A program made the position numbers and the translations under genes. Under the pieces are notes generated by a model, which saw nothing but the letters and a program-made list of their open reading frames with translations, was not told the DNA's origin and did not search any database. DNA of 28,907 nt from a virus. Its lineage: Duplodnaviria > Caudoviricetes. Positions 2,259 through 27,427 of the stretch are shown one piece after another. Every line of letters begins with the position of its first letter. Position 1 is the stretch's first letter. The stretch is from positions 1-28,907 of IMG/VR virus record IMGVR_UViG_3300037524_000601; one strand, 5' to 3'.

Positions 2259-2362
2259 CCTTCCTTTTCGGATTCCTCGTGGGCCTCGTGGTCGGCGTGC
2301 CGGCGGGCCTCTGGGCGATGGCGATGGCGATGATGGCGCGCAGAAGCGAGGCGGGCGTATGA
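2255..2362 (+). CDS. Tiny membrane protein (35 aa)
   Basis: MTFLFGFLVGLVVGVPAGLWAMAMAMMARRSEAGV; SD AAGGAG; ATGA coupling. Confidence 0.65.
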   Translation: MTFLFGFLVGLVVGVPAGLWAMAMAMMARRSEAGV

Positions 2363-3102
2363 CCCATTGGTCTGACGCGCTAGTGCGGCTGGGGGCGTGC
2401 GGGGACGCGGTGGCGTGGGCGCGGACGCAGCCGGACTTAGCGACGGCGTGGGCGGCGTGCGAGCGCGGCGAATGGCTGCTGTGGCTGGTGGGGAGCAAGC
2501 CTGGGCCTACCGGCGGGGATCTGCATCGGCGGTTGGTGCTGGTGGCGTGCGGGTGTGCGCGGTTGGCGCTCCCGGCGTGGCAAGCGCGGTATCCCGATGA
2601 CGGCAGGCCCGAGGCGGCGATCCTCGCGGCGGAGGCGTGGGCGCTTGATCCGACCGAGGCGGCCAATCGAGCCGCCTGCGCCGCGAGTGACGCCGCGTGG
2701 GCCGCGAGTGACGCCGCGTGGGCCGCGTGGGCCGCCGCGAGTGACGCCGCGTGGGCCGCCGCGAGGTACGCCGCGAGGGACGCGAGTTACGCCGCGAGTT
2801 ACGCCGCGAGGGCCGCCGCGAGGGCCGCCGCGTGGGCCGCGAGTGACGCCGCGAGGGCCGCCGCGAGGGCCGCCGCGAGGGCCGCCGCGAGGGCCGCCGC
2901 GAGGGCCGCGAGTGACGCCGCGTGGGCCGCGTGGGACGCCGCGTGGGCCGCGAGTGCCGCCGCGAGTGACGCCGCGTGGGCCGCGAGTGCCGCCGCGCGT
3001 GCCGCGAGGGACGCGAGTTACGCCGCGAGTGACGTGACGCGCCGCCAGTGCGCGGACATCGTGCGGTCCATCATTGACTGTCCGAGTCTGGAGGGCGTAT
3101 GA
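2359..3102 (+). CDS. Ala-rich repeat protein with Imm5-like helical N-terminal part
   Basis: LGAC..AV.W...WLLWL and ACGCARLALPAW..YPDDGRPEAAI.AA, then a long AAW/AAR/ASDA repeat tract and a Q.ADIVR end, a layout common in phage accessory proteins. Confidence 0.75.
   Translation: MTHWSDALVRLGACGDAVAWARTQPDLATAWAACERGEWLLWLVGSKPGPTGGDLHRRLVLVACGCARLALPAWQARYPDDGRPEAAILAAEAWALDPTEAANRAACAASDAAWAASDAAWAAWAAASDAAWAAARYAARDASYAASYAARAAARAAAWAASDAARAAARAAARAAARAAARAASDAAWAAWDAAWAASAAASDAAWAASAAARAARDASYAASDVTRRQCADIVRSIIDCPSLEGV
2680..3033 (+). repeat. Coding tandem repeat of 9/12/21-nt units
   Basis: Units such as GCCGCGAGTGACGCCGCGTGG and GCCGCGAGGGCC; general form GCCGCG-WGK-KMC. Confidence 0.95.
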
Positions 3103-8593: not shown

Positions 8594-9869
8594 CGCCACC
8601 CCCGCCCTGTCGCTCCACCCGCTGCAGGGCCTCATCTTCAAAGACCCGCACCGCTTCCGCGTGCTCGTCTCGGGCCGCCGCTTCGGCAAGACCCGCCTCG
8701 CCATCGCCGAGCTGCTCTCCCGCATCCCGACGCGCGGCCTACTCTGGTATGTCGCGCCCACCTGGGACGCCGCGCGTGACATCTGCTGGCGCGAGCTTAA
8801 GCGGTTCACCCCCGGCCAGTGGCTGACTAAGGTCAACGAAACCCGCCTCGAAATGGAGTTCCTGAACGGCTGCCGCATCCAGTTGAAGTCGGCCGAGAAC
8901 GCCGATGCGCTGCGCGGGCGCGGCATCACGCATGTGAACGTGGACGAGTATCAGGACATCGACGCGGGCGTGTGGACCGACGTGCTCGCGCCGTCCCTGC
9001 TCGACACGGGTGCGGGCGCCGGCACGGCCTGCTTCTTCGGCACCCCGAAGTCGTTCAATCAACTCTACGACCTGTATGCGCTGGGCCAGTCCGGGCATCC
9101 CGAGTGGAAGTCCTGGCAGTTCAAAAGCATGGACGCCATCGAGCCGCACGGGCACCTGAAGCTCGCCGACATCGAACTGTTTCGCTCACAGCTCGACGCG
9201 CGTTCGTTCCGGCAGGAGTTCGAGGCCAGTTTTGAAGCCCTGTCGGGCCGCGCCTACTACGCCTTTGCTCGGGCTGAGCATGTCCGCGACGTCGAACTGG
9301 AATCGGCCGTGCCGCTGTGCCTGTCGGTGGACTTCAACATCGACCCGAGCAGCGCCGTGATCTGGCAGCGTGTGGGCGAGGAGTGCCGCGTATGGCGCGA
9401 AGTCCAGACTAGGCATGCGGGCGGCGAGGCCACCCGGGCGACTGCTGAGCGGGCCCGCCAGTTGGTGAGTGACGCAGGCTGGCATGGGCCCCTGCGCCTC
9501 TACGGCGATGCGACAGGACGGGCAGGCAAGACCACGGGGCCCAGCGACCATGCCGTGCTGCGCGAAGTCTTCCCGGGCGCGTCGTGGTACATCGGCGCCA
9601 ACAATCCGCATGTGCGCGATCGCGTGGCCGCCGTCAACGGCCGCTGCAAGAGCATGACGGGCCAGGTGCGGTTCCGCGTGGACCCGGCGTGCGTGAAGCT
9701 CATCGCGGACCTCGAGCAAGTCGTGTTCGCCGAGAATGGCGAGCTGGACAAGAAATCGAATCCCGCGCTCTCGCATTTGTCAGATGCATTAGGGTACGGC
9801 GTGGCGCGTGAATGGCCGCCTTCAAAGCGCCTCGTGGATGGCCGGATGTTTGCCGGCGTGGATGTGTAG
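8586..9869 (+). CDS. terL: Terminase large subunit
   Basis: Walker A GRRFGKT, YVAPT, LRG, Walker B VNVDEY, GTP coupling motif, nuclease SVDFNIDP and HLSDALGY. Confidence 0.97.
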   Translation: MTDATPALSLHPLQGLIFKDPHRFRVLVSGRRFGKTRLAIAELLSRIPTRGLLWYVAPTWDAARDICWRELKRFTPGQWLTKVNETRLEMEFLNGCRIQLKSAENADALRGRGITHVNVDEYQDIDAGVWTDVLAPSLLDTGAGAGTACFFGTPKSFNQLYDLYALGQSGHPEWKSWQFKSMDAIEPHGHLKLADIELFRSQLDARSFRQEFEASFEALSGRAYYAFARAEHVRDVELESAVPLCLSVDFNIDPSSAVIWQRVGEECRVWREVQTRHAGGEATRATAERARQLVSDAGWHGPLRLYGDATGRAGKTTGPSDHAVLREVFPGASWYIGANNPHVRDRVAAVNGRCKSMTGQVRFRVDPACVKLIADLEQVVFAENGELDKKSNPALSHLSDALGYGVAREWPPSKRLVDGRMFAGVDV

Positions 9870-9878
9870 GAGACGATC

Positions 9879-11483
9879 ATGGCCAGCGACACGACGGCGA
9901 CCCTGACCCACCCGATCTACGCCACGCTGCAGCCCACCTGGGAGCTGCTCCAGGCCGCATACCGGGGCGATGGGGGGTTCCTCGATGGGAGCGCCCTGGT
10001 CGCCCACCCCCGCGAGATTATCTACAAGCGGGACGTCAACGGCGTGGTGACGACGGAGGTGCAGGCCTACAAGGACAAGTACCGCCGTAGGCAGTCGCTC
10101 GCGCGCTACGAGAACTTCGCGCGCACGATCGTCGATACGTTCATCGCGCATCTGTTCGCCAAGTCGATCACACGCAACACCGAAAACGTGCCCGGCCTGG
10201 AGGACTGGTGGGAGGACGTGGACGGGGCCGACTCGAACATCGCGGACCACATGCAGCAGCAGCAGGCGCTGGCGATGGTGTATGGCCATGTCGTCGTGCT
10301 GATGGACCGCGAGACGACGGACGGGCCCGCCGTCACCCGCGCCCAGCAGGGCCAGCCGGTGCTGCGCGTCTACTCGCCGCTCGATGTGCTGGACTGGATC
10401 TGGGACCGCGGGCGCTACCGGGCGCTCAAGGTCGTGGAAGCGGTGCCGCGCGACGACCTGGCGGTGGCGGGGGCGAGCGCGGACGCCGACCTGCGCGGCG
10501 GGGGCGATGGCGCGCCGAAGGAACTGACCTACGTGGTCTGGACCGAGACGGACTGGACGCGCTACGACGGCAAGGGGAAGGCGATCGACTCTGGCGCGCA
10601 TGGGTTCGGGCGCGTGCCGGCGGTCATCCACCGCGCCCGGCCGGTGCCCGGGATGCCCTCGATTGGCGCGTCGACGCTGGGTGACCCGAAACTGCACCGG
10701 GACCATTACAACCTCGTGAGCGAACTGCGCGAACTCCTGCGCAGCCAGACCTTCTCGATGCTGAATATCCAACTGGGCCAGGACGAGGCGGTCGAGGAAG
10801 CGCGGGGCCGGCTGGGGGATGCGGCCAGCGTCGAGACGGTGCTCTGGAGCAAGGGCTCAGCCGGGTTCATTGCCCCGCCCGAGGGCCCCGCCGCCGTCTA
10901 TCAGCAGGAGATTGAGGCGCTCGAACGCAAGCTCTACCGCATGGCGGGGCTGCCCTGGGAAGGCGATAGCGCCGCGGCCGAGAGCGCGGACAGCCGCCGG
11001 CTCAAGGCGATGGACCTGAACCGCCTACTGGCCATGTACGCGGACGAGGCCGAGCGCGTGGAGTATCAGATCGCCGCGTTGTGGCACACGGCCACCACGG
11101 GCGAGACGGACCCCGCGCGCGTGGCGCAGGCGCTCGATCAGGTCGTGATCCACTACCCGGATGAGTTTGCCACGATTGATACGGCGCAGGCGGCGGCGGA
11201 TGTGCGGGATGTGGTGACGATGCAGTTGGGCCCCACGGCGACCGCCGAAGCCCGCAAGAGGGCCGTGCCGATTGTGCTGCCCGATCTGGACCAGGCGACA
11301 ACGGACACGGTGGCGTCGGAAATCGACCAGGCGACGGTGGAGTCCGACAAGCTCAACCAGCAGACCAAGCAGGCCGAGTTCCGGGCGCTGGTAAGCGCCG
11401 CCTCACCCGTGAAGCCCGGTCAGCAGATGGCCGATGGCGAGAAGGACGGCGGGCAGATACAGGACGCGGGGGCGAGGGCGTAG
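9879..11483 (+). CDS. Portal protein
   Basis: Follows terL; 534 aa; HP.Y...W....AY.G, Y..R...A.YEN, DVDG, HGFGRVP, AESA motifs of SPP1/DUF4055-type portals. Confidence 0.9.
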   Translation: MASDTTATLTHPIYATLQPTWELLQAAYRGDGGFLDGSALVAHPREIIYKRDVNGVVTTEVQAYKDKYRRRQSLARYENFARTIVDTFIAHLFAKSITRNTENVPGLEDWWEDVDGADSNIADHMQQQQALAMVYGHVVVLMDRETTDGPAVTRAQQGQPVLRVYSPLDVLDWIWDRGRYRALKVVEAVPRDDLAVAGASADADLRGGGDGAPKELTYVVWTETDWTRYDGKGKAIDSGAHGFGRVPAVIHRARPVPGMPSIGASTLGDPKLHRDHYNLVSELRELLRSQTFSMLNIQLGQDEAVEEARGRLGDAASVETVLWSKGSAGFIAPPEGPAAVYQQEIEALERKLYRMAGLPWEGDSAAAESADSRRLKAMDLNRLLAMYADEAERVEYQIAALWHTATTGETDPARVAQALDQVVIHYPDEFATIDTAQAAADVRDVVTMQLGPTATAEARKRAVPIVLPDLDQATTDTVASEIDQATVESDKLNQQTKQAEFRALVSAASPVKPGQQMADGEKDGGQIQDAGARA

Positions 11484-13692: not shown

Positions 13693-14826
13693 ATGGCATT
13701 TACCGGCAAGGCGACCTACGACAACTTCGCCCTCGTGGGCGAGGATGTCAGCGACCTGGTTGTGCTGCTCGGCCCCACAGAGACGCCCTTCCTGAGTGTC
13801 CTGTCGGCCGGCGGACCTGCGACCAGCACCTACCACCAGTGGACCGAGGAACTGCTCGGCCCTGACACCCTGATCGCCTCGACGGCGGTCAACTCGGCGA
13901 CGGCGGCGACGGGCGCGACGGTGAACGGGTTGGGCCATCTGGTCCAGGTCGGGATGCTGCTCAAGCTCGAATCCGGCACGCCGGGGGTGGGCGACGAAAT
14001 CGTGCAGATCACCAGCGTGGTCGGCGCGAACTCCATCCTGTTCGCCCGGAACAAGAACGGGGTCGTGTCCAGCCTGGCGGTCGGCGGCACGCTCAGCATC
14101 CTCGGCGCCGCGGCGCTCGAAGGCGAGGACGTGACGCAGGATGTCACCCGCAAGACGACCCGGGTGACCAACGTCACGCAAATCTTCAAGAAGGACATCA
14201 TCGTCAGCGGGTCGGACCTGTCGATGAGCTACGCGCCGAACCAGGGCGACCAGTACACCCACCAGTCCGGGATGCGGCTGCGGGAGTGTATGCGCGACCT
14301 GGAGAAGACGATCATCAAGGGTGCGGTGGTCAACTCCATCGCCTCCGCGACGGTCACCCGCACGATGGCCGGGCTCGAATCCCGCCTGACGGCGATCAAC
14401 TCGACCATCGTCACGGCCAGCTTCTCGGCCAACCCGGTCCTGTATGTCAACGATCTGTGGCAGCAGGCCTGGAACGCGGGCGCGCGCGACATCGACCTGA
14501 TCCTCGTCGGGGCGACCTGGAAGCGGGCCATCAGCGGCACGAACGCCAGCGTCCTGTCGGTCGATCAGTCGGACGCGAGCGTGAAGCGGTTGGTCGAGAA
14601 CTTCCAGGGCGACTTCGGGCAGGCGCGCGTGATCCTGTCGCCGTGGATGACGGCCTCGGGCGTAATGCTGCTCTCGACCTCGCGCGTCGTGCCGGTCCCG
14701 CTCCAGGGCCGTTCGTTCCAGACCGTTCGCACGGGCCTGACGGGCGACTCGCAGAAGGGCTTCGTCGTGGGCGAGTACACGGTGGAGATCCGGCAGCCGA
14801 GCGCGATGGCCTACGGCCACGTCTAG
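13693..14826 (+). CDS. Major capsid protein, DUF5309/SU10-like HK97 fold, with an insertion domain
   Basis: PTETPF, W.E.LL, NVTQIFKK.I.VSG, RDLE..II.G, RTMAG, GDFG, TGDSQK.FV.GEYTVE. Confidence 0.92.
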   Translation: MAFTGKATYDNFALVGEDVSDLVVLLGPTETPFLSVLSAGGPATSTYHQWTEELLGPDTLIASTAVNSATAATGATVNGLGHLVQVGMLLKLESGTPGVGDEIVQITSVVGANSILFARNKNGVVSSLAVGGTLSILGAAALEGEDVTQDVTRKTTRVTNVTQIFKKDIIVSGSDLSMSYAPNQGDQYTHQSGMRLRECMRDLEKTIIKGAVVNSIASATVTRTMAGLESRLTAINSTIVTASFSANPVLYVNDLWQQAWNAGARDIDLILVGATWKRAISGTNASVLSVDQSDASVKRLVENFQGDFGQARVILSPWMTASGVMLLSTSRVVPVPLQGRSFQTVRTGLTGDSQKGFVVGEYTVEIRQPSAMAYGHV

Positions 14827-15504: not shown

Positions 15505-15909
15505 ATGGCCAACGCCCTTTATCCGACCTTCAAGGAGGCGCTGCTCAACAAGGAGCACGACCTCAACACCGACGTGATCATGGCCACGCTCATCGATGGC
15601 GCGGACGAGAGTTACGCGGCCACCGACAACACGTACGTGGCCGGCACGAACGGCATCGCCGACGCGGCCAAGGTGGCCGTCACCTCGCTGACCTCGCCGA
15701 CCATCGCGCTCGGCGTGTTTGACACGGCGAACTTCACCTGGACCGCGGTGACCGGCGACGTGTCGGAAGCGATCCTGCTGTGGAACAACACCCACACCAG
15801 CGATGCGGTCATCGCCTGGTACGACACGGGCGTGACCGGCCTGCCCGTGACGCCCAATGGGGGCGACATCAATGTCACCGTGAATGGGTCGGGGTGGTTT
15901 TCACTCTGA
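15505..15909 (+). CDS. Conserved small virion structural protein (fibre/filament subunit-like)
   Basis: MANALYPTFKEALL...DL..D.I...L...FD....W....G...LPVTPNGGDI.V...G.F.L, a pattern I recognise from phage structural clusters. Confidence 0.7.
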   Translation: MANALYPTFKEALLNKEHDLNTDVIMATLIDGADESYAATDNTYVAGTNGIADAAKVAVTSLTSPTIALGVFDTANFTWTAVTGDVSEAILLWNNTHTSDAVIAWYDTGVTGLPVTPNGGDINVTVNGSGWFSL

Positions 15910-16425: not shown

Positions 16426-17040
16426 ATGGCGCAACTGGCCGTGCCGAACTCGATCGTGAGCGCGACCTGGGTCGGCACGGTGGCCGGGCTCACGGACGCC
16501 AGCGATAGTACCTACCTTGAATCCCCGGCTGACCCCACGGCGGCCAGCACGTTCCTCTGCTCCCTGAGTTCGATCGCGGACCCCCTCATCCATACCGCCC
16601 ACCAGCTGCGCGTGCGAACGGCGCTGTACCCGAGCACGGGCGCGGCGCTCAGCCTGGCGCTGTCGCTGGAGAACGCGGACGATAGCAGTGTCGTGGCGAG
16701 CTGGACGGTCGTGGCACCCGTGGCGGTGGCCGAGTCGGTGCTAAGCATCTCCGAGGCGCAAGCGGCGCTGATTCATAGTTACAGCGGCCTGCGCGTGCGC
16801 GGGTATGCCGAGGCGGCATCGTACACCTACTTCGTCTGGTCAGCGGTGGGCGGCGCGACGAGCTACGTGCTGCAGATACGCCCGTCCACCTCGGCCACTT
16901 ACGACACGTACAACGCCGATGTGGGCAACGTCCTCACGTATGGCGTGGCGCTCGCGTCGGCGACGTACTACAGTCGCGTGGTGCCGTATGTAGGTGGAAC
17001 GGCGCTCACGCCCACGGCGGAACAGGCGGTGACGGTATGA
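16426..17040 (+). CDS. Two-domain adaptor-like protein: beta-sandwich lacking its last strand plus FN3-like domain lacking its first strand
   Basis: Residues 1-130 align with pieces of 18812, 19702 and 21057; residues 131-204 read YFVWSAVGGATSYVLQ...TYYSRVVPY (FN3 W / Y / YY-x-RV pattern). Confidence 0.65.
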   Translation: MAQLAVPNSIVSATWVGTVAGLTDASDSTYLESPADPTAASTFLCSLSSIADPLIHTAHQLRVRTALYPSTGAALSLALSLENADDSSVVASWTVVAPVAVAESVLSISEAQAALIHSYSGLRVRGYAEAASYTYFVWSAVGGATSYVLQIRPSTSATYDTYNADVGNVLTYGVALASATYYSRVVPYVGGTALTPTAEQAVTV

Positions 17041-18500
17041 GGCGATGGCTGATGGCGGCGGCGCTGGTCGTGCTGGTGCCGGTCGAGGTGTGGGCGGCGT
17101 GTACAGGCGCGAGTCCGCGATGGGCGAGTAGCGCCGACTACACATCCCTGTGTGGATGCATCAAGGGAGCCACGGCGGGCGACACGATTACCGTCACCGG
17201 GGACGCGACGTGGACGACGTACTGTGAGTTCACGCGAGGCGTGAATCTAGTTGGAGTAGGCAATCCGACGATCACGGGCAAGACGCTCATGCTGTGGTGG
17301 CACTATAACGCGGCGGCGCAAACCGCGCACGATACGCTCACGATTAAGGGGTTTACGTTTGACGCCGACGAAGCCTCGCAGACGCAATTATCCGACGTGG
17401 GCATTATTACGCTCGGGTATACGACTGGTGGCAACTACGTATCGGTCGTGATCGTTGGCAATATCTTCAAGAACACGGAGGGACGCGGGATCTACAACTG
17501 GGGCCGCACGCATGGCGTCATTTCGCAGAACACGTTTGACCGGGTGCGTGTCCCGTTTGGACTCTATGGAGGCAACCACGATCAGTGGCTCGTAGACACA
17601 CAAGCCTTTGGTGGCGATCAGCAAGTCTATTTCGAGGGCAACCTGATTCAGTACTCGTCGGCTTTTCCCTACTCGCCGCGTGCTGTCTCTGGGGGAAACG
17701 GGGGGCAGGGTGTCATCCGGTACAACGATTGGAATATGCACAAGGAGTCGGGGACCGGGGATGACCTGTGGGAACTGCACGGCCTACAGCCCATGTTTAA
17801 GTCTGATGGCGTCACGTATTGTGGAACGGCGGTCGATTGCGACTTGTCCGTCAAGAAGGCAGATTCATACTCGAACATGAACAGCGAGTGGTATGGGAAC
17901 AACATCTATGGCGTGAATACAGGCCAGTGGATGATGGAATTACGCGGGGGGTGGGCGCTCCTGCACCACAACGCGTACGCGGCAACCTCTGGCAGCGGCT
18001 ACGGCATCACCTACAAAGAGTACTCCTGCGACATTACCCAGCGGTATTACGCCACGCATGGTTCATTCGTCATGCACATTGCGAATACCTACGTCTGGAA
18101 CAACTTTGACAAGGGGACTCGTTTCGGGCCGATCAACAAGAACTTCGATCTCTGCGCCGACAACGTGACGCCGACCAACGACCCGAACAAGTACACCATC
18201 ACCGAGAACGTCGATTACTGGAACGACAAGTACGCCACCTTTGATGGCACCTCCGGGGTGGGCTGTGGCACGATCGCGGCGCGTCCAGCCACTTGCACCA
18301 CGGGCGTCGGGTACTGGGTCACGGATCAGTCCTGCACGAGCCTGACGGGGATGATCGGGCGCTCACCCACCACGCCCATCAGCGGCGCCCTGTACAAATG
18401 CACGGCCACGAATACGTGGACGAGTTACTACACCCCCTACACCTACCCGCATCCGCTGGTGACGACGCTGCCCGCACCCGCCGCCGTGAGGGTCAAATGA
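17037..18500 (+). CDS. Secreted right-handed beta-helix (pectin-lyase-like) protein, Cys-rich
   Basis: Sec-type signal MRRWLMAAALVVLVPVEVWA; A.AGDTI.V..G; I.GFTFD; repeated x-I-x-x-N-x-F coils; 12 Cys; ends YTPYTYPHPL...PAPAAVRVK; lower GC by eye. Confidence 0.75.
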   Translation: MRRWLMAAALVVLVPVEVWAACTGASPRWASSADYTSLCGCIKGATAGDTITVTGDATWTTYCEFTRGVNLVGVGNPTITGKTLMLWWHYNAAAQTAHDTLTIKGFTFDADEASQTQLSDVGIITLGYTTGGNYVSVVIVGNIFKNTEGRGIYNWGRTHGVISQNTFDRVRVPFGLYGGNHDQWLVDTQAFGGDQQVYFEGNLIQYSSAFPYSPRAVSGGNGGQGVIRYNDWNMHKESGTGDDLWELHGLQPMFKSDGVTYCGTAVDCDLSVKKADSYSNMNSEWYGNNIYGVNTGQWMMELRGGWALLHHNAYAATSGSGYGITYKEYSCDITQRYYATHGSFVMHIANTYVWNNFDKGTRFGPINKNFDLCADNVTPTNDPNKYTITENVDYWNDKYATFDGTSGVGCGTIAARPATCTTGVGYWVTDQSCTSLTGMIGRSPTTPISGALYKCTATNTWTSYYTPYTYPHPLVTTLPAPAAVRVK

Positions 18501-18811
18501 GACGCTGGCTGATCGCGCTCGCCCTCGTCATCTTCGCGCTGCTCGTCGCGCTCGCGGTGTCGGCCAAACAGACGCCCGCGCAGATCGAGTGGACGCATTC
18601 CGGCGTTGGCGTCGTCAACTTTGAGTGCGTCATCGACGGTGTGGTGACCGGCAACCTGGGCCTGCCCACCCCGTCAGGCACAACCTATACGGCCAACCTC
18701 TCCCTGTGCGGGACGATTGCGGCGGGCCAGCATACGCTGGCGATTCAGGCGTGCAACGGGGCGGGATGCGTACCGTCAGCCTTGTTGACCCTTGTAAAAC
18801 TGGAGCCGTAG
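18497..18811 (+). CDS. Small secreted FN3/Ig-like protein
   Basis: ATG at 18497 (ATGA overlap); signal MRRWLIALALVIFALLVALAVSA; IEW...G.HTLAIQACN..GC..S; 4 Cys. Confidence 0.75.
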   Translation: MRRWLIALALVIFALLVALAVSAKQTPAQIEWTHSGVGVVNFECVIDGVVTGNLGLPTPSGTTYTANLSLCGTIAAGQHTLAIQACNGAGCVPSALLTLVKLEP

Positions 18812-19702
18812 ATGGCCGAGCAATGGTTCGGGAACACGACGGGCGACACTGATGCCGACATCTATTCCTACCCCGCGTGGAACAACGATGCGGTTGCCGC
18901 GTTTGTCTGTCCCGCTGATGGTGCGTTGACGGGTCTGCGGGCGAAAGTGCGCGTAGCGAGTGGGAGCCAGAGCATCCGCATCGCGCTGTATGCCGTGGCG
19001 GGGGATCGTGATTTCATCGCGCAAGGTAGCGCGGCCATCACCGTCTCGAACACGTCCTATGAGACGAAGACCCATACGGCCTTCGTGGATAGAACCGGGG
19101 CATCGGTAACGCCCAGCCTCACCAGTGGCACGCACTATATTGCGGTCATCGCTGGTCACAGTGGGACCGTTTATTGCGCCCGTAACACTACGTCAAGCGG
19201 TCTGCTCTACCGGCCCGGTGGATCATGGAACATCACCAACGCTGACGCATTCCCGGCGACACTCGAAGGCGGCACCGAATACGCGGGGCCAGTCTGCCTA
19301 GAGATCGGCGTGACGCCCGCCGCCACCGGCCAGGATCTGACCGGGGCCACGCTGGCCTCGGGCGCGTCCCTGCTCGCGGGCACGCTGGCCGTGGGCGCCG
19401 TCACGGTCACCGGCGCCACGCTCGCGGCGGGTTCGGCGCTGCTCGCTGCCACGCTGGCGCGGAACCAGATCGCGTTGCCGGTGCTGGACATCGCGGATGG
19501 CAACTGGATCTCGTACCCCTCCGGGATACCCGGCAACAACGTGGATATGTGGGCGGATCTGGACGAGACCGTGCCGAACGATACCAACGCGATTCGGAGC
19601 GGCGCGACCCCCTCGAATGACACCTACACCTGCGCGTTGTCGAGCCTGGCCACGCCCGGGGCTGGCGACGTGATTGTGCGCGTGCGCGCCCGGTACTGCT
19701 GA
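18812..19702 (+). CDS. Modular structural protein: beta-rich cargo domain, two stalk repeats, C-terminal half-domain
   Basis: IRIALY...LTSGTHYIAV jelly-roll-like N-part; LTGATLASGASLLAGTL-type repeat twice; C-terminal QIALP..D..GNW...LDE...VRVRA. Confidence 0.75.
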   Translation: MAEQWFGNTTGDTDADIYSYPAWNNDAVAAFVCPADGALTGLRAKVRVASGSQSIRIALYAVAGDRDFIAQGSAAITVSNTSYETKTHTAFVDRTGASVTPSLTSGTHYIAVIAGHSGTVYCARNTTSSGLLYRPGGSWNITNADAFPATLEGGTEYAGPVCLEIGVTPAATGQDLTGATLASGASLLAGTLAVGAVTVTGATLAAGSALLAATLARNQIALPVLDIADGNWISYPSGIPGNNVDMWADLDETVPNDTNAIRSGATPSNDTYTCALSSLATPGAGDVIVRVRARYC

Positions 19703-21057
19703 TGGCCTGGGCCGTCAATCGCCCTGCCGCCGGCACCGCGTATAGCCTGCCCACCCGTCTGTTCCCGGTCGATAACTGGTGGAACCTCAACGTCTCGGCC
19801 GCGCCGCTGGACGTGCGCTCGTCGGCTCTCATCGACTTCTGTGCGGGCGGGTCGCCCGATCTCGGCGGCAATCCGGCCCTCGACCTGGGGCTGGCGACTG
19901 ACTGGGGCAACAACTACGGGATGCCCTACTGCACGGTGAGTGGGGACCACCCGACCATCGTGTTTGCTTACGTCGGCTACAGCGGTGGGGCGAGCGGAGA
20001 CGATACTCGCGGGTTCCCCATTCCTGCCGCATCCATTACCGAAGCAGGTTGGACCGAGGATCTGGCCGGAACGATTGCGGCCCCCAAGTGGCTCGTTTCG
20101 ACAGGTAGTTACCGTGACCGCCACCTCCTCATCTTCGACGTCGATAACCAGTATCTCTACGAGATTTACCAGCCGTACTACAACGCGACGGCCAGCCCGC
20201 AGTCGGGCTTTATCGATCCAGACTACCCCGAGTACGGGACGATCTACCCATATGGCAACACGACCGTCATTCAACCCGGCACGTATGCCTGTCAGAGTTG
20301 TTCGTTCTGGGACGCCAAGACGAATGCCTACCGACCGCTGGGTGTGACGTCATCGGACGCGGCGGGACTCCAGGTGCTGCCGGGCCTCGTACAGTACGAC
20401 GAAATCATCAGCGGCCTACCGATCACGCACGCGCATCGGATGTGCCTGTATTCCAACTCCAGCGACGAGCCGAAGTACGTCTGGCCCGCCACGCATGAAG
20501 CGGGGTCATGGACGGCCAATCACCCGCCGCTCGGCACGCGGTTCCGGCTCAAGGCCTCCTACAACGCCACGGGCGAGTACGCGGTCTGCCAGACCTTCAT
20601 CCAGTCCCTGAAGGACTACGGCCTCATCTTTGTAGACCGTGGCGGGCATGGGCAGATCACCGGCACCAACGATACGCGGTGGGGCAGCAGCAGCGATTAC
20701 CCCCGGGTGCAGCTGGTGGACACCATCAGCCGGATCGACTTCGCCGATCTCGAAGTCGTCCAACTCGGCTGGACCCCCGCCACGACCACGAGTTACGTGC
20801 GCCTGTCGTGGCTGGGGCTGGACGTGCCGAGCCTGCCCTACCAATATGCGCGCCCCACCGCGGATCTCGACGCGGGCACCTGGGTGCCGTCGAGTGGCAG
20901 CACGCTGGCGCCGATGCTGGATGAGACGATCGCCGACGACGCGGACGACATCAGTTCGACGGGGAGTGGCGTCGAAACCGCCCTGCTGCGGCTGCGCGGG
21001 GCCAACCGGCCGATCGCGGGTCCGATCCGCTTGCGCGTCCGCGCCAAGAGGCACTGA
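19702..21057 (+). CDS. Modular protein: bacterial-type domain of unknown function, orphan strand, C-terminal half-domain
   Basis: FP.DNWWN..V..AP, YGMP, DRH, DAAGL.VLPGLV.YDE, YVWPA.H, PP.G.RFRLK, YG.I.VD.G; tail YVRLSWLGLDVP followed by QYARP..D..GTW...LDE...LRVRA. Confidence 0.8.
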   Translation: MAWAVNRPAAGTAYSLPTRLFPVDNWWNLNVSAAPLDVRSSALIDFCAGGSPDLGGNPALDLGLATDWGNNYGMPYCTVSGDHPTIVFAYVGYSGGASGDDTRGFPIPAASITEAGWTEDLAGTIAAPKWLVSTGSYRDRHLLIFDVDNQYLYEIYQPYYNATASPQSGFIDPDYPEYGTIYPYGNTTVIQPGTYACQSCSFWDAKTNAYRPLGVTSSDAAGLQVLPGLVQYDEIISGLPITHAHRMCLYSNSSDEPKYVWPATHEAGSWTANHPPLGTRFRLKASYNATGEYAVCQTFIQSLKDYGLIFVDRGGHGQITGTNDTRWGSSSDYPRVQLVDTISRIDFADLEVVQLGWTPATTTSYVRLSWLGLDVPSLPYQYARPTADLDAGTWVPSSGSTLAPMLDETIADDADDISSTGSGVETALLRLRGANRPIAGPIRLRVRAKRH

Positions 21058-23723
21058 TGGCCCTCACCCTCGACAAGTTCGCGTTCGGGCTGGATAGCGG
21101 CACCGAGTCCACGCACCCGTGGATTCCCGCCGGGACCAACGCGCACTATACCGGGGCCCCGCTCGATACGAACCTGCTGCTGCGCATCAACGTGCAGGAG
21201 TCGGACGTGACGGCCGTGGCGAATCTGGCCTGCACCTGGCAGTACAGCCGCAACGGGGGCGCGTGGACGAACATCACGACCACCTCAACTGTGGCGCGGG
21301 CGGTGCCCGTGGCCGTGTTTGCGAATGGCGCAAACTGCACCCAGCGGTTGGCCGGCACGGGCAGCTTTGAAACGAGCGGCGCGGGCTGTACCGAGGACGG
21401 CACGAGCGGCGGCAGCGCGAACGACCTGCTGCGCGCGGGCTGCACCGAACAAGAACTCGGCTTTCAGTTGCGATCCGCAGATCTGGTGGCCGGCGATTAC
21501 ATCGATTTCCGCGTGATCGGCTCCACCGCGATCACGGTGAATGCCGCCAACACGCCGCGCGCGTATATCGCCAAGGCCGTCGGGCTCATCAATATTGCCA
21601 CGGCCTCAGTCCTGCTGGCGTGCGCCGTCACGGTGGGCGCCGTCACCCTCGCGCCCCCCGCGCTGACGTCAACGGTCGATGTGCGGGACGCGCACGTGCT
21701 GACCGGCCCGGTGAACCAGGCGCTCAGTCTGGACACGATCCTAGGCGGCGCCAGCCTCACGGTCCCGACCGTCTCGCCCTCGCAGGCGCTCAGTCCGCCG
21801 ACCATCAGCGCCTGGTCGGCCCTGACCGCGCCGATCGTGCATCGGTTGGTGCTTGAGCTGTACGAAGGCACGACGCTCCGGGCCACGCGCGACTGGCCGC
21901 TCACCTCCACATTGACCACGCAGGCGTTCACGCTCACCACGGACGAGCGCACCGCCATCACCAACTGGGCCACGCTGCGCCTGTCGTGTGTCGCCGATGG
22001 GGTGCAGGTCGAGGTCAGCCAAGTCTACGTCGAGCTGCCGGAAGGGTTGGCGGCGGGCGGCCTGACGCAAGACGACACGATCAGCACCGGGGCGGTCCTC
22101 TCGGCGCCCGTGGTCGCGCCCGGCGCGGTGACCCTGCTCGCGCCCACGATCCCGACCGGCCTCACGCTGCTGGAGCCCCGCCTCGGGGGGATTCTCGACG
22201 GCGCCACGGTCGCCGCCGGGTCGGCCCTCTACGCGCCCACGGTGGCCGGGGCGGCCGTGACCCTCGTCCTGGGCGACACGATCGCGGCGGGCAGCACCGT
22301 GGCGGCGCCGACTCTGGAAGGCTGCACCGTCAGTCTGCTGCAAGGCAGCACCCTCATCGCCTCGACCGACCTGACACTGGGCGCCTCGCTCGCCACGTTC
22401 GCCTGGACGCTGACCACCGACCAGCGCAACGCCGTGACGGACTGGACCGCGCTGCGCGTGTCCGTTGTGGCCAGCGGGCGGCAGGTCGAAGTTAGCCAAC
22501 TCTACGCGGAACTCCCCGCATCGTCGGGCAACGACCTCTCTCTCCCCACGATCGGCAGCGGCCTGGTCCTGAACGAACCGGCCCTCGACGTGTTGGTGCT
22601 CGAACCGCCCACAATTGACAGCGGGAGCGTCGTCTACGAGCCGGCCCTCACCGTGCCGGTGATCCTCGCGCGGTTGTACGAGGGCACCACGCTGATCGTG
22701 CAGGTCGAGGTGCCGGTCCCGGACGTGTTCACGACGGCCGAGTTCCTGTTTGACGACAACGAATTGGCGGGGGTGAGCGACTGGTCGGACCTGCGACTGG
22801 AACTCGTCATCGAAGACGAGGTGGGGCGCGTTTCGTGGGCGGAACTCGAAACGCCCGCCGCCGATGCGGTGCAGCCGCCGACGATCGCGGCGGGCAGCGC
22901 GCTCACGGCGCCGGTCCTCACGCCCGCGGCGGCGACCCTCATCCTGCCGTTCCGCGCGAGCAGTGCGGCGCTGACGGCGCCTGCGCTCACGACCGGGGCG
23001 GTGCCCCTCTACCTGTCCACGATCGGCACGGGCGCCGCCCTGGCGGCCCCCAGTCTGGCAGTCGCCGGCGCGTCGCTGGACCTCACGGACACGATTGCGA
23101 CGGCGGCCACGCTGGCGGCGCCGACCGTGGCGTCTGGCGCGACCACGCTGACCGGCACGACGATCATCACGGGGATCGGGCTGGCCTACCCGCCCGCGCT
23201 CGATGTGGGCGCGGTGACGCTCGACGGGGCGACGCTGGACACGGGCGCGGCCCTCCTGGCGCCGGTGGTGACGGTGGCCAGTGCCAGCCTGGTGCTGACC
23301 GAGACGATGGCCAGCGGGGCCGCGCTCACCGCGCCGTCGATGGCCGCGCCGCTTGAGACGTTGCAGGCGCCGACCCTGGCCAGCACGGCCGCGCTCTCCG
23401 CGCCGACCCTGAACGTCTCGCCCGTGTTCCTCGTGGGCGCGTTCCTACCAGACGCCACGCAGGTCTCGGCGCCGTCGCTGACCCTGGCCTTGGTGAGGTT
23501 GACGGTCCCCGTCCTCGACGCCAGCCCCACGGTCTACGCGCCGGCGGTCATCGCCGGGCAACTGGTGGACGGCGCGCCCGCGCTCGCCGGCACGGTCCTG
23601 TACGCACCCGTCGTCAGCTTCATGTTTACCGGCGTGGTGTCCACCCGACGCACGTACACGCCGGACCCTGACGCGCGCACCTTTACGCCGGACCCCGAGG
23701 TCCGGGTCTGGATTGCCACATGA
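21057..23723 (+). CDS. Long fibre/stalk protein with about 21 repeats of about 22-24 aa and three inserted half-domains
   Basis: Repeat consensus roughly AVTL..PTI..G..L.AP.V; three related 66-aa inserts; C-terminal RTYTPDPDARTFTPDPEVR. Confidence 0.85.
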   Translation: MALTLDKFAFGLDSGTESTHPWIPAGTNAHYTGAPLDTNLLLRINVQESDVTAVANLACTWQYSRNGGAWTNITTTSTVARAVPVAVFANGANCTQRLAGTGSFETSGAGCTEDGTSGGSANDLLRAGCTEQELGFQLRSADLVAGDYIDFRVIGSTAITVNAANTPRAYIAKAVGLINIATASVLLACAVTVGAVTLAPPALTSTVDVRDAHVLTGPVNQALSLDTILGGASLTVPTVSPSQALSPPTISAWSALTAPIVHRLVLELYEGTTLRATRDWPLTSTLTTQAFTLTTDERTAITNWATLRLSCVADGVQVEVSQVYVELPEGLAAGGLTQDDTISTGAVLSAPVVAPGAVTLLAPTIPTGLTLLEPRLGGILDGATVAAGSALYAPTVAGAAVTLVLGDTIAAGSTVAAPTLEGCTVSLLQGSTLIASTDLTLGASLATFAWTLTTDQRNAVTDWTALRVSVVASGRQVEVSQLYAELPASSGNDLSLPTIGSGLVLNEPALDVLVLEPPTIDSGSVVYEPALTVPVILARLYEGTTLIVQVEVPVPDVFTTAEFLFDDNELAGVSDWSDLRLELVIEDEVGRVSWAELETPAADAVQPPTIAAGSALTAPVLTPAAATLILPFRASSAALTAPALTTGAVPLYLSTIGTGAALAAPSLAVAGASLDLTDTIATAATLAAPTVASGATTLTGTTIITGIGLAYPPALDVGAVTLDGATLDTGAALLAPVVTVASASLVLTETMASGAALTAPSMAAPLETLQAPTLASTAALSAPTLNVSPVFLVGAFLPDATQVSAPSLTLALVRLTVPVLDASPTVYAPAVIAGQLVDGAPALAGTVLYAPVVSFMFTGVVSTRRTYTPDPDARTFTPDPEVRVWIAT

Positions 23724-24010
23724 GCCAGAACACCCTCGACCCGCACGACCCGAGCGACGTGAAGGATTACGCCATCAACTGGGCCGCGCTGCTCATCGGG
23801 GATGGCGAGGCGGCGATCAGCAGTTCGACGTGGGGCGCGTCCGTTCCGACCGGCCTCACCATCAGTTCGACCACGGCCACCGCGACGCTGGCCGTCGTCT
23901 GGGTGACCGGCGGCGAGCCGGGCCGCACCTACGGGTTGACGAACAAGATCACCACGCCGCTGGGCCGCACGCACGAGCGCACGATTTTCGTGCCGTGTAA
24001 GCAGCTCTAG
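23720..24010 (+). CDS. Small fibre-adaptor/base-like virion protein
   Basis: HDPSDVKDYAINW...I.SSTW....GLT...VWVTGG..G..Y...N.ITT..GR..ER pattern, which I recognise from genes that follow fibre genes. Confidence 0.75.
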   Translation: MSQNTLDPHDPSDVKDYAINWAALLIGDGEAAISSSTWGASVPTGLTISSTTATATLAVVWVTGGEPGRTYGLTNKITTPLGRTHERTIFVPCKQL

Positions 24011-24267: not shown

Positions 24268-24482
24268 CCGCGCGCAAGAAGGCGCTCCCGAAGCGCCAAA
24301 CAATTAGTGACCGAATTGGCGAAGATGTAAGGAGGGTGATCGCCACGCATCCAACACTGGAAGAGGACCAGCGCAAAACGCTGCTCAGAGACTTTCTGGC
24401 GCTAATGGAATCTCAACGTGCGCTACTGATGATTTGGAGTGGCATCAAGTACCATGTCCAGGCCACACGGAGGCTCAAGTGA
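24264..24482 (+). CDS. Small helical hypothetical protein (lower GC)
   Basis: Coupled on both sides; DVRRVIATHPTL versus DVARIIERHPDL in the previous gene. Confidence 0.65.
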   Translation: MTARKKALPKRQTISDRIGEDVRRVIATHPTLEEDQRKTLLRDFLALMESQRALLMIWSGIKYHVQATRRLK

Positions 24483-27427
24483 CCGCGCGCCAGTGGGTGT
24501 TCTACCTGGAGTCGGTCCCGTTCACCAAGGACGTGATCGAGGGGCGAGGCTCGCTCGGTGGCAGCGAGTCGGCCGCCATCGGCATGATGCAGGCGCTCGC
24601 CCGCCGCGGCCATGACGTCCAGTGCTTCGCCACGAAACTGGAGCAGCCCGGTGAGTATGCCGGGGTGACCTGGCATCGCGCCGAGTCGGACCTCGGGTCG
24701 GCGCTGTCGTTCCTGACGCCAGATTGCTTCGTGTCGCTGCGCATGGTGACGCCGTTCGTGCAGGCCCGCATCCCGGCGAGTTGGCACGTCCTCTGGTGCG
24801 AGGACTTACTGATCGATCTCAGCCTGACGGGCACGCTCTCGCAGGTCGATGAGCTCTGGTACGTGAGCGCGTATCACCGCCAGCAATGGGAGGGCCGCGA
24901 GAAGTTCCTGCAGCCGCTCGGGTGGGTGACGCAGAACGGGATCGACCCCGCCCACTATCCGACGCAGGTCTGGCCAAGTGGCGCGTCCTGGGACGATGGC
25001 GTGCGGGTTACGCGCGATCCGCACCGCTACATCTACATCAGCCGGCCCGAACGGGCGCTCAAACCGCTGCTCGAGATGTGGCCGGCGATCCGCGCCGCGG
25101 ACCCGATGGCGACCCTGGGCATCTGCCGGTACAAGTCCATGTACGACGGCGAGGGGTCGAACGTCCAGCAGATGGTGGACACGTTCGACCAGATGACCCA
25201 GATCGTCGCGGAGCAGACGGGCGGGATCGAGTATCTGGGCCAACTCGGCAAGCGACGGCTCGCCGAAGCCATCGCGCGCAGCCGGGCGATGCTCTACCCG
25301 GGCGTGGCGAGCTTCGCCGAGACGGGGTGCATCGCCGCCACCGAGGCGCAGATGTGCGGCACGCCCCTGCTGGCCTCCTGGCGGGGGGCTCTGCCCGAGA
25401 CGCTGCATCCCGACGCGGGCGTGCTGCTGGCCGGCGACAGCGAGACACCCACCTACCAGGCCGCCTTCGTGGAGGCCGTGGCGCGCCTCCAGGCGCTGCC
25501 CGATCCCGCCTATCAGGCGATGCAGGAGGCCGGACGGCACCACGCGCAGGGCTACAGTTTCGACCGGCTGGCCGAGCAGTGGGAGCAGCACCTGGAGGCC
25601 AAGTTCGCCGAACGGTACGCGGCGCACGGCCCGGCGATTCTCCGCACGCTGCTGCACTACGACCAGCATGTGATGGCGCGGGACGTGGCGGCCGAGCTTG
25701 GAGACGATGGGGCCCTCAAACTCTGCGAGACGGTCATCGCCGGGCAGCATCAGACCGCCGAGGACTACGCCGAACACGCCATCAGCGATCCGGTGGCCGA
25801 GTCCCAGACGAATGAGCGGTTCCGCGAGGTGGTGTCGCTGGTCCAGACGCAGGGGCGCACCCCCCGGACGATCCTGGACGTGGCGTGCGGGAATGGCGCC
25901 TTGGCCCTCGCGCTGGCGCAGGCCTTCCCCGAGGCGCAGGTGATCGGCGTGGACTACTCCCCTGGGGTGTTGGCGATCGCGCGGGCGGGCGCGGAGGCGG
26001 CCGGGGTGGCGAATCGGGTTACGTTCAGCCAGGTGGACGCCACCACGGGCGCCTACCCGGCGGGGCCGTTTGACGTGGTGACCTGCTGCGAGTTCATCGA
26101 GCACGTCGAACACCCGCACGCGCTGATCAACCGGCTGGAAGCCGTGACCGCGGCGGACGGCCTGTGCGTGCTCACCTGTCCGGCGGGGCCGTTCGCGGAA
26201 CTCATGGCCAACCCTGAGACGCGCAAGCGCGGGCACCTGCACACCTACACGCATCAGCAGTTGTCGCGGTTGTTCCTGGGCCGGTCCTGGCACCTGCGGC
26301 ACCTGGGGATTGGCGCCACGCAGCGCGGCACGCCCGTGGGGTACTGGATCGTGTCGTGGCAGCCGGCGCCGGCGCAGCCCGCGCAGCCCGTAGACTGGCG
26401 CGCGGATGTGGTCGCCACGCGCCCGTACCAGCACCTGACCGCCATCATGATCATGAAGGATGGCGAGGACTGGCTGCGGAAGTGTCTCAAGGGACTGGCG
26501 TGCGTGGATGACGTGCTGATCCATGACACCGGCTCGACGGACGAGTCGGTGGCGATCGCGGAGAAGTGGGGGGCGACCGTCGTTCGCACCGACTGGCCGG
26601 ATTCGTTCGCCGTGGCCCGCAATCGGGTGCTTGCGGATGCGGAGGCGCGCGGGGCGGATTGGGTGCTCTGGATCGACTGCGACGAACAACTGGAGCACGG
26701 CGAGCGGTTGCGGCGGTATACCACCGGGGCGGGGCCGTTCATGGGCTACGTGCTCCGGCAGCAGCATTTGATGCTCGATGCGGCCTCGTTCCACGACAAG
26801 CCTGTCCGGCTGTTCAGGACCGGGCGTGGCATCAGGTTCTATGGGGCCATCCACGAACAGCCGGAAACGGCGCCGGACGCCGGGATCTGGCCGTCGCTCG
26901 AACTGCCCGACCTGGACATCCTGCACCTCGGGTATCACCGGGACGGGATGCGGCGGCACAAACTGCTGACCCGGAACCTGCCGCTGCTGCAGAAGCAGTT
27001 GATGGCCCCGGACGGGGAGCGGCGCCGGCTCGATACGGTGCTGTTCATTCGGGACTGCGCCAACATCGCGCAGTTCGAGATCGAGACGCACCGGGGCCAG
27101 GTGAGCCCGAAGGCGGGGCGGCACGCGCAGGGTGGGGTGCTGGCCTACCGTAAACACTTCAGCGACCCCGGCGACAAGTACCATGCGCTGGCGCGGCCGT
27201 TCTACGAAACCTGCCTACGGATTGCCGGGCAGGGGCTGGAGATTGGCTGGGCGCTCGGCGCGGGCGTGCCGAAGCTGGCCAGCAAGCTGGCCCCGGAAAC
27301 GTTCCACGCCTTTGACGTGGACGAGGCGCGGGCCGAGATCCACGCGCGCACGAACAGCATCCTAGCGCAACTGGTGACGCCGAGCGTGGACACGGAGCCG
27401 GTGATGACGAGAAGGGGGCACGCATGA
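24479..27427 (+). CDS. GT4 glycosyltransferase / class I SAM methyltransferase / GT2 glycosyltransferase fusion (about 982 aa)
   Basis: GTG at 24479 with SD GGAGG. GT-B: LGGSE..L..RGH.V, NGID, ETGCIAATEAQMCGTP. MTase: ILDVACGNG, GVDYS, FDVV...EFIEHV. GT-A: DTGSTD, F..ARN, WIDCDE, F.G.IHE. Confidence 0.92.
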   Translation: MTARQWVFYLESVPFTKDVIEGRGSLGGSESAAIGMMQALARRGHDVQCFATKLEQPGEYAGVTWHRAESDLGSALSFLTPDCFVSLRMVTPFVQARIPASWHVLWCEDLLIDLSLTGTLSQVDELWYVSAYHRQQWEGREKFLQPLGWVTQNGIDPAHYPTQVWPSGASWDDGVRVTRDPHRYIYISRPERALKPLLEMWPAIRAADPMATLGICRYKSMYDGEGSNVQQMVDTFDQMTQIVAEQTGGIEYLGQLGKRRLAEAIARSRAMLYPGVASFAETGCIAATEAQMCGTPLLASWRGALPETLHPDAGVLLAGDSETPTYQAAFVEAVARLQALPDPAYQAMQEAGRHHAQGYSFDRLAEQWEQHLEAKFAERYAAHGPAILRTLLHYDQHVMARDVAAELGDDGALKLCETVIAGQHQTAEDYAEHAISDPVAESQTNERFREVVSLVQTQGRTPRTILDVACGNGALALALAQAFPEAQVIGVDYSPGVLAIARAGAEAAGVANRVTFSQVDATTGAYPAGPFDVVTCCEFIEHVEHPHALINRLEAVTAADGLCVLTCPAGPFAELMANPETRKRGHLHTYTHQQLSRLFLGRSWHLRHLGIGATQRGTPVGYWIVSWQPAPAQPAQPVDWRADVVATRPYQHLTAIMIMKDGEDWLRKCLKGLACVDDVLIHDTGSTDESVAIAEKWGATVVRTDWPDSFAVARNRVLADAEARGADWVLWIDCDEQLEHGERLRRYTTGAGPFMGYVLRQQHLMLDAASFHDKPVRLFRTGRGIRFYGAIHEQPETAPDAGIWPSLELPDLDILHLGYHRDGMRRHKLLTRNLPLLQKQLMAPDGERRRLDTVLFIRDCANIAQFEIETHRGQVSPKAGRHAQGGVLAYRKHFSDPGDKYHALARPFYETCLRIAGQGLEIGWALGAGVPKLASKLAPETFHAFDVDEARAEIHARTNSILAQLVTPSVDTEPVMTRRGHA

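Follow-up and report, generated by a model that had tools for sequence, protein, structure and literature searches.

A jelly-roll domain divided between neighboring genes of an uncultured phage, and its predicted role in docking cargo proteins on a fiber

The window analyzed here is the whole of a viral record assigned to the Caudoviricetes (IMGVR_UViG_3300037524_000601; 28,907 nucleotides, estimated to be 61% complete), in which terminase, portal, and SU10-type capsid genes are followed by a tightly packed gene module and then by a glycosyltransferase-methyltransferase fusion. Residues 1-130 of one module protein, gp16426, form a domain that recurs elsewhere in the module in two separate pieces. 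The N-terminal piece (N-half) ends the proteins gp18812 and gp19702, and the C-terminal piece (C-half) occurs three times inside the repetitive protein gp21057. In the window and its relatives these pieces probably represent a conserved, functional split domain. An original prediction made from the letters alone had proposed that different cargo proteins dock on a stalk by reconstituting this domain, and all five half-domain pieces were found where it had located them. Its description of the reading frames also holds, since all are open and either abut or overlap. Consecutive genes between 15949 and 24010 are spaced by +6, -4, -4, 0, -1, -1, and -4 nucleotides, with one-base overlaps (TGATG) joining gp18812 to gp19702 and gp19702 to gp21057. 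The features of the module are as follows, with N-halves called plugs and C-halves called sockets in anticipation of their predicted roles.

15505..15909, plus strand: gp15505, likely bead subunit coating the rope repeats (phrog_644, E 5e-20)
16426..16815, plus strand: gp16426 residues 1-130, jelly roll resembling a carbohydrate-binding module (CBM), without the last beta-strand; likely acting as socket to a lone strand
16819..17037, plus strand: gp16426 residues 132-204, FN3-like domain, strand A apparently absent
17037..18500, plus strand: gp17037, putative cargo with a signal-peptide-like start, 12 Cys, and an FN3 strand-A-like C-terminal tail (18468-18497)
18497..18811, plus strand: gp18497, signal-peptide-like start and small FN3-like domain, strand A apparently absent
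18812..19702, plus strand: gp18812, putative cargo domain, short rope-like repeats, and C-terminal N-half plug (19466-19699)
20791..20829, plus strand: candidate lone last strand, gp19702 residues 364-376, possible donor for gp16426
20842..21054, plus strand: N-half plug at the C-terminus of gp19702 (gene 19702-21057)
21057..23723, plus strand: gp21057, putative rope or stalk with an N-terminal domain, at least 15 short hydrophobic repeats, and three C-half sockets
21843..22043, plus strand: C-half socket 1 including the last strand, found by both profiles
22320..22523, plus strand: C-half socket 2 including the last strand, found by both profiles; partner in the predicted complex
22659..22862, plus strand: C-half socket 3 including the last strand, found by the window-inclusive profile and by direct pairwise likeness
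23640-23720, plus strand: C-terminal RTYTP-type repeats of gp21057
23720..24010, plus strand: gp23720, fiber-tail adaptor of the GP4 gp77 type, likely rope anchor

The register of the pieces was established with two profiles, the first built from 8 sequences including gp16426 (142 positions) and the second, independent one from 70 domains outside the window (146 positions). The first matches the window six times: gp16426 (16426-16815) occupies positions 1-141 of 142, the N-half of gp18812 (19463-19696) positions 2-74 (E 3e-10), the N-half of gp19702 (20842-21045) positions 3-74 (E 1e-7), and three stretches of gp21057 run from position 85 or 87 to 140 or 141 (E 9e-6, 1e-5, and 1e-3). The second places gp16426 at positions 34-143 of 146 (E 3e-11), gp18812 at 2-75 with the match ending two residues before the stop (E 8e-10), gp19702 at 2-48 (E 7e-6), and two of the three C-halves at 96-144 and 85-144 (E 1e-3 and 5e-3). 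The third C-half has no match below E 1 with this non-window profile; it matches the other two directly in pairwise, shuffle-controlled comparison (z 13.4 and 8.8). Both profiles place the N-half first and the C-half second, as consecutive parts of one domain. In shuffle comparisons the N-halves resemble each other (z 9.9), as do the C-halves (z 8.8-24), and N-halves bear no likeness to C-halves (z -1.4 to 0.7). Pairwise likeness of gp16426 to the individual halves is uneven (z -0.1 to 6.7), and therefore the link between gp16426 and the halves needs the profile.

The original prediction read gp16426 1-130 as N-half plus C-half. The profiles uphold this as the same domain, but it falls short of a complete one. 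The terminal V-S-x-x-x-x-E-x-P strand, which belongs to the C-half pattern of that very prediction, is missing, so that residues 1-130 are the domain minus its last strand. Rather than an unsplit reference, gp16426 is probably a second kind of socket. A whole-domain homologue (L091) keeps a strand V-x-W-x-E-x-E-x-P at residues 137-146. As modeled (predicted local distance difference test score, pLDDT, 87 for gp16426 1-130 and 94 for the homologue), the fold is a galactose-binding-domain-like jelly-roll beta-sandwich, the fold of CBM4, 32, 35, and kin. The gp16426 model aligns to residues 2-151 of the CBM4-2 structure 4bj0 (Z 7.7), whereas the homologue aligns up to residue 167 (Z 11.5, root-mean-square deviation 3.1, 124 residues aligned); gp16426 also aligns to CBM32 7d2a (Z 8.6, deviation 3.0, 109 aligned). 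Foldseek gives E about 1e-4 to CBM4/35, and no E below 0.001 with gp16426 alone. The named CBM families tie within about 2 Z units and none fits. Identity to them is only 7-16%, Pfam gave no match above cut-off, CBM families included, for 26 members of the domain family, and the PDB holds no sequence relative of the family; sugar binding by the phage domain is putative. Structural clusters of the domain in the Atlas are mostly viral. Fold matches in BFVD (template modeling score, TM, 0.64-0.70) include proteins of 320-377 residues from the cultured phages Achromobacter AchV4, Roseovarius 217-1, Serratia JS26, and Vibrio VpV262, which are possible laboratory models.

Co-occurrence of the two halves with the same cut, a check proposed with the original prediction, was found in the window and two other records. 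One of these (L098; 39% complete, ending inside its stalk gene) repeats the order and count of the window, with one near-full domain, two N-halves, and three C-halves, at 28-51% identity and with cargoes that do not match. Its genes include a gp16426 orthologue (45% identical), one cargo that starts like gp18497, another with an N-half at its end, and a 99-residue protein consisting of a lone last strand plus an N-half; the N-half of its ORF (open reading frame) 7583 is 46% identical to that of gp18812. Its stalk (9119-11408) has three C-halves and the same N-terminal domain, with a Ser-rich Ser-Glu-Ser-Arg repeat in place of the hydrophobic rope repeat. The other record, a siphophage (G001; 78% complete), has no whole copy of the domain. 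One N-half lies inside a 1164-residue frame, and one C-half opens a gene about 6 kb downstream, right after a tape-measure-like gene, with the tail tube gene also between them. The cut itself is conserved as well: gp18812 and gp19702 had been noted to stop at the same point, and in all seven C-terminal N-halves examined the R-x-R strand position is followed by just 4-7 more residues. These seven include that of P0006, which is nearly identical to gp19702 in the plug region (residues 362-451, 89 of 90 identical) and far less so in its cargo (233 of 357).

A C-half profile matched 2685 protein clusters (50% identity), and 136 of the best 150 carry a C-half. Among the 227 C-halves in these 150 clusters, 146 have a clear N-half upstream, 66 have none, and 15 were left unclassed. 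Proteins with at least two such orphan C-halves number 19 among the best 150 clusters, gp21057 included. P0004 is 42% identical to gp21057 with the same three sockets, a further stalk (L089) has two C-halves, and P0012 and P0058 combine sockets and a terminal plug in one protein. One site holds W in 35 of 49 internal orphan C-halves and in 17 of 146 whole domains, which mostly have Y there, suggesting that the W-bearing orphans are a specialized lineage. As a separate observation, P0017, P0068, and P0119 have inserted segments at or near the split loop, a possible route to fission.

Word-index protein searches, an insensitive method, returned two matches each, one being the window's own protein. 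A viral scan with a three-sequence C-half alignment confirmed none of 88 candidates, and a metagenome scan yielded two loci whose match was limited to the N-terminal domain of gp21057. A looser viral pattern gave 16 matches, with L098 the only new split locus and L089 and L090 recovered again; an N-half pattern gave five, of which three are copies of the G001 phage, one is a whole domain, and one lacks the domain.

Relatives also show a second form of division. The 80 viral loci compared go back to a single pattern scan with 193 matches, of which the best 80 were taken, duplicates and one partial locus removed, and two further loci added. Of 83 full-length domains in these loci, 76 stop within 5 residues of the penultimate strand and 4 keep the last strand. 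Of the 68 loci in which a strandless domain is followed by 3 kb or more of sequence, 58 hold lone last strands, as against none of the three loci with in-place strands only; the lone strands are often 16-residue tandem repeats. Where strandless domains are fused, 11 of 16 loci have one lone strand per domain. The motif matches 325 times, compared with 0-1 times in five shuffles; the minus strand has no match. In these relatives, the last strand is mostly all that the domain lacks, and a neighboring gene carries it in repeats and would supply it; the cut differs from that between the half-domains. In several loci (L008, L013, L019, L053, and others), proteins consisting of up to 15 copies of the strand at 16-residue spacing are encoded near a gene for a 140-150-residue strandless domain, like beads on a string. 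In L079 (9311-12031) and L083 (8109-9956) one chain holds both the domain and, more than 200 residues further downstream, its last strand. The window holds one candidate of this kind, residues 364-376 of gp19702, which score 11.8 bits with a position-specific scoring matrix, compared with 10.0 and 11.2 for the in-place strands of the first and second C-halves. The 99-residue ORF of L098 has the same order of strand and N-half as gp19702. A second joint of the same family is likely, in which the lone strand of gp19702 would complete gp16426, the domain that lacks exactly this strand.

Structure prediction of an N-half with a C-half had also been proposed as a check. One of the six possible pairs was folded, the gp19702 N-half with the second C-half, together with three controls, and it scored 0.66 against a best control of 0.00. 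Among solved complexes, 116 of 157 attain this score, as do 2 of 215 mismatched pairs, a rough yardstick, as the alignments were our own. Runs of the complex showed at least 93% agreement in about 200 contacts, with partner pLDDT of at least 75. Each half modeled with an unrelated partner, as in the controls, had low confidence (pLDDT 37-56), which speaks against the independent folding that would have told against the original prediction. In the predicted complex, the last strand of the socket pairs with the terminal R-V-R strand of the plug, and the cut interleaves strands of both sheets. The halves are thus predicted to refold into one domain, interlocking strand by strand.

By profile, gp21057 matches a minor tail protein family (phrog_8501, E 1e-11), and a regular expression finds at least 15 short repeats in it; it has no sequence match to a solved rope. 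Downstream of it, gp23720 matches PF23148 (78.4 bits against a cut-off of 27) and PDB 8jou_D (E 0.021), and upstream the 134-residue gp15505 has a profile match to the tail wing arm gp31 of Bxb1 (PDB 9d93, E 1.7e-13). Fibers of the podophages GP4, VP1, and A1002 are described as chain-like rope-and-bead assemblies in which the rope augments a sheet of folded dimers (PMC13730344; PDB 8JOU); the dimeric bead of this type, gp80-like, has about 140 residues. By analogy, we infer a GP4-type rope in gp21057, with gp15505 as its coat and gp23720 as its link to the particle.

The remaining genes of the module include FN3-like parts. Residues 132-204 of gp16426 (73 residues) have Atlas structure matches with TM 0.73-0.88, several to clusters with FN3 members, and they resemble bacterial proteins; all matches fall under the bar for naming (feature score 0.89), so the assignment is a lead only, and the absence of strand A, one of the seven of an FN3 fold, was judged by eye. 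The putative cargo gp17037 has no Pfam, PHROG, or NCBIfam match, and a tail like its own C-terminal one ends an otherwise unmatched cargo in L098. A weak ChitinaseA_N match of gp18497 (E 0.015) lies below cut-off, and this protein is 39% identical to the N-terminus of an L098 cargo (E 2e-16). A third joint, between the strand-A-less FN3 part and the gp17037 tail, is weakly suggested. As side observations, the signal-peptide-like starts of gp17037 and gp18497, recognized by eye, are 47% alike over 36 residues, and a single L098 gene combines a gp18497-like domain with a cargo that has the gp17037-like tail.

Sequence and profile establish the two halves and their register, the conservation of the cut, and the co-occurrence. 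On this base stands the reading that we consider quite probable: split halves dock by fold complementation on a GP4-type rope, with both binding and virion location being predicted. The N-half would be a plug ending two cargo proteins and the C-half a socket, three of which sit on the rope. Together they would refold into one domain and hang the cargoes, as adhesion modules, on a branched virion fiber, the two plugs possibly sharing the three sockets and gp16426 riding on gp19702 by way of the lone last strand. Cargoes would probably plug in during assembly, in a joint made once and close to irreversible. The original prediction called the fiber branched and reconfigurable. An interface of the predicted size is probably not exchanged, so the latter word would hold only over evolutionary time. 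A near-irreversible joint would leave variety to come from gene swapping between phages, and possibly from the sharing of three sockets by two plugs; such swapping of cargoes in evolution is supported by P0006 and gp19702, whereas exchange on the particle finds no support.

Several points weigh against this docking arrangement. Split-gene halves tend to pass such structure prediction, and the alignments consist largely of unsplit homologues, so the complex speaks for compatibility and not for binding; its score may reflect a model rebuilding a familiar fold, and it covers one pair of six. Co-occurrence at the level of loci rests on three records, the orphan C-half proteins come without their genomic surroundings, and part of the N-terminal orphans may be fragments. 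Nor do the numbers match, as each of the two full modules has two plugs to three sockets (in records that are 61% and 39% complete). The 80 last-strand loci are the top of a single pattern scan with near-identical contigs included, and the strand in gp19702 reaches a shuffle p of only 0.035, with a second site in the cargo (341) tying with it. Between gp15505 and the GP4 protein gp80 there is no sequence match.

A more elaborate arrangement can be entertained only tentatively, namely a four-tier branched appendage built from three orthogonal fold-complementation joints. These would be the rope C-half with the cargo N-half, the gp19702 strand with gp16426, and the strand-A-less FN3 part of gp16426 with the C-terminal strand of gp17037. 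The last protein would then be an exported, disulfide-rich adhesin that folds outside the cytoplasm and is snapped on at lysis, and a domain family with two interchangeable cut points would amount to a docking grammar of uncultured phages.

It is improbable that the halves instead act alone or with their own kind; C-halves would then pair, for example, with one another within a rope or across ropes, and the N-half would be a small module in its own right. Three C-halves to two N-halves would suit such an arrangement, as would the standalone 71-residue C-half proteins P0052 and P0114, but the interleaved strands of both sheets and the low confidence of each half beside an unrelated partner oppose it. 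Moreover, both halves are found together in all three records with enough context, and in a 1:1 ratio in G001. Docking by complementation could also be real yet belong not to the virion but to a phage-encoded structure that is secreted or sits on the host surface. The signal-peptide-like starts of gp17037 and gp18497 and the bacterial resemblance of the FN3-like part would fit this, and no tail tube or tape measure gene was recognized by Pfam or PHROG among 21 window proteins scanned. However, plugs and rope lack a signal-peptide-like start, the module follows the capsid gene and lies between the Bxb1 wing-arm homologue and the GP4 fiber adaptor, the G001 socket opens the gene after a tape-measure-like gene, and the Atlas clusters of the domain are mostly viral, all of which makes a non-virion structure very unlikely.

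Frameshifting or re-initiation at TGATG might join the halves into one chain, making a domain with a large insertion. The one-base overlaps would allow this, and in single chains the loop at the cut does take insertions, one of 80 residues in P0017. Yet about 260 residues separate the start of gp21057 from its first C-half, a fusion would serve only one N-half and one C-half, and the G001 halves are 6 kb apart with tail genes between them; on these grounds we rejected fusion, which has hardly any likelihood left. Phage fiber loci are mosaic, and the halves might thus be functionless debris of recombination or misassembly, but this is the least credible explanation of all and largely refuted by independent records, because, beyond the intact, coupled ORFs that the original prediction had held against decay, L098 keeps the same cut and order at its low identity, 19 clusters have repeated orphan sockets, and the plug was kept while the cargo diverged.

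Neighboring genes offer further observations. Adjoining the fiber module, a 997-residue fusion of GT4-like, methyltransferase, and GT2 domains is encoded at 24434-27427, and glycosyltransferase-like genes adjoin fiber genes in L098 and L094 as well, so that the Ser/Thr-rich ropes might be glycosylated. The capsid protein (13693-14826) exceeds the SU10 profile in length by about 80 residues, which suggests an inserted domain, and a 247-residue ORF at 2359-3102 has a long Ala-rich tract of AARAAA/ASDAAW repeats. A search of 50,697 cultured phage records with gp21057 and one unsplit homologue (tblastn) gave no match. A C-half DNA pattern had 40 matches in GTDB, none holding the domain (best E 0.036, a fragment), and hence no host or prophage was found.

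Few structures show how phages fix several different receptor-binding modules to a single appendage. The predicted system would be a portable docking unit, based on a domain divided at the middle or ahead of its last strand, shared by uncultured phages with two or more gene layouts and with many sockets per rope, and it would explain how cargo genes are swapped while the attachment stays fixed. It would also give a function to a large unnamed family, given the 2685 clusters that match the C-half profile, although most of the top ones are unsplit, and it would offer a natural split tag of 70 plus 70 residues.

The original prediction likened the system to cohesin-dockerin pairs and to donor-strand complementation. 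It would indeed work like the latter, but it belongs to neither family. Cohesin and dockerin are unrelated, separately folded domains. As there, a scaffold with repeated sockets would show different cargoes via a terminal module, but the plug and socket of the window derive from a single domain, and neither is predicted to fold by itself. Membership was rejected, as Pfam finds neither domain at E 0.1. The subunits of chaperone-usher and type V pili are incomplete beta-sandwiches to which a second chain contributes what is missing. Completion in trans would likewise apply to the relatives with the last-strand form, and probably to gp16426, and for the half-domains a missing element supplied in trans is supported by co-occurrence and one predicted complex. 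The differences are a jelly roll instead of an immunoglobulin fold, a cut near mid-domain, and branching instead of a linear polymer. A place among chaperone-usher systems was rejected, with the split domain not having an immunoglobulin fold and no periplasmic chaperone or usher recognized by Pfam among the 21 proteins scanned from this 61% complete record.

Among phage structures, the GP4, VP1, and A1002 fibers come closest to the putative rope. Like them, the window module has a putative repetitive rope, a small candidate bead, and a gp77-type adaptor; their parts are joined by beta-strand addition (PMC13730344), which is predicted for the window. Unlike them, the window rope carries three half-domains of 70 residues, and the accessible part of that report describes no docking of cargo by half-domains (PMC13730344). 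Nor was half-domain docking in phage fibers found in the literature searched, which mostly left subscription journals outside. The original prediction knew of no described phage example. For domain complementation in a phage tail, the nozzle of A1002 provides a precedent: one ancestral beta-propeller fold is split over gp39 and gp42, which complement each other, although this split does not serve as a portable docking unit used repeatedly (PMC13730344). In both cases one fold is divided between genes and rebuilt by strand complementation, by prediction in the window. As described there, the nozzle is one part of the tail core whose partner is single and fixed, whereas the window has a jelly roll, several sockets, and unrelated cargoes (PMC13730344).

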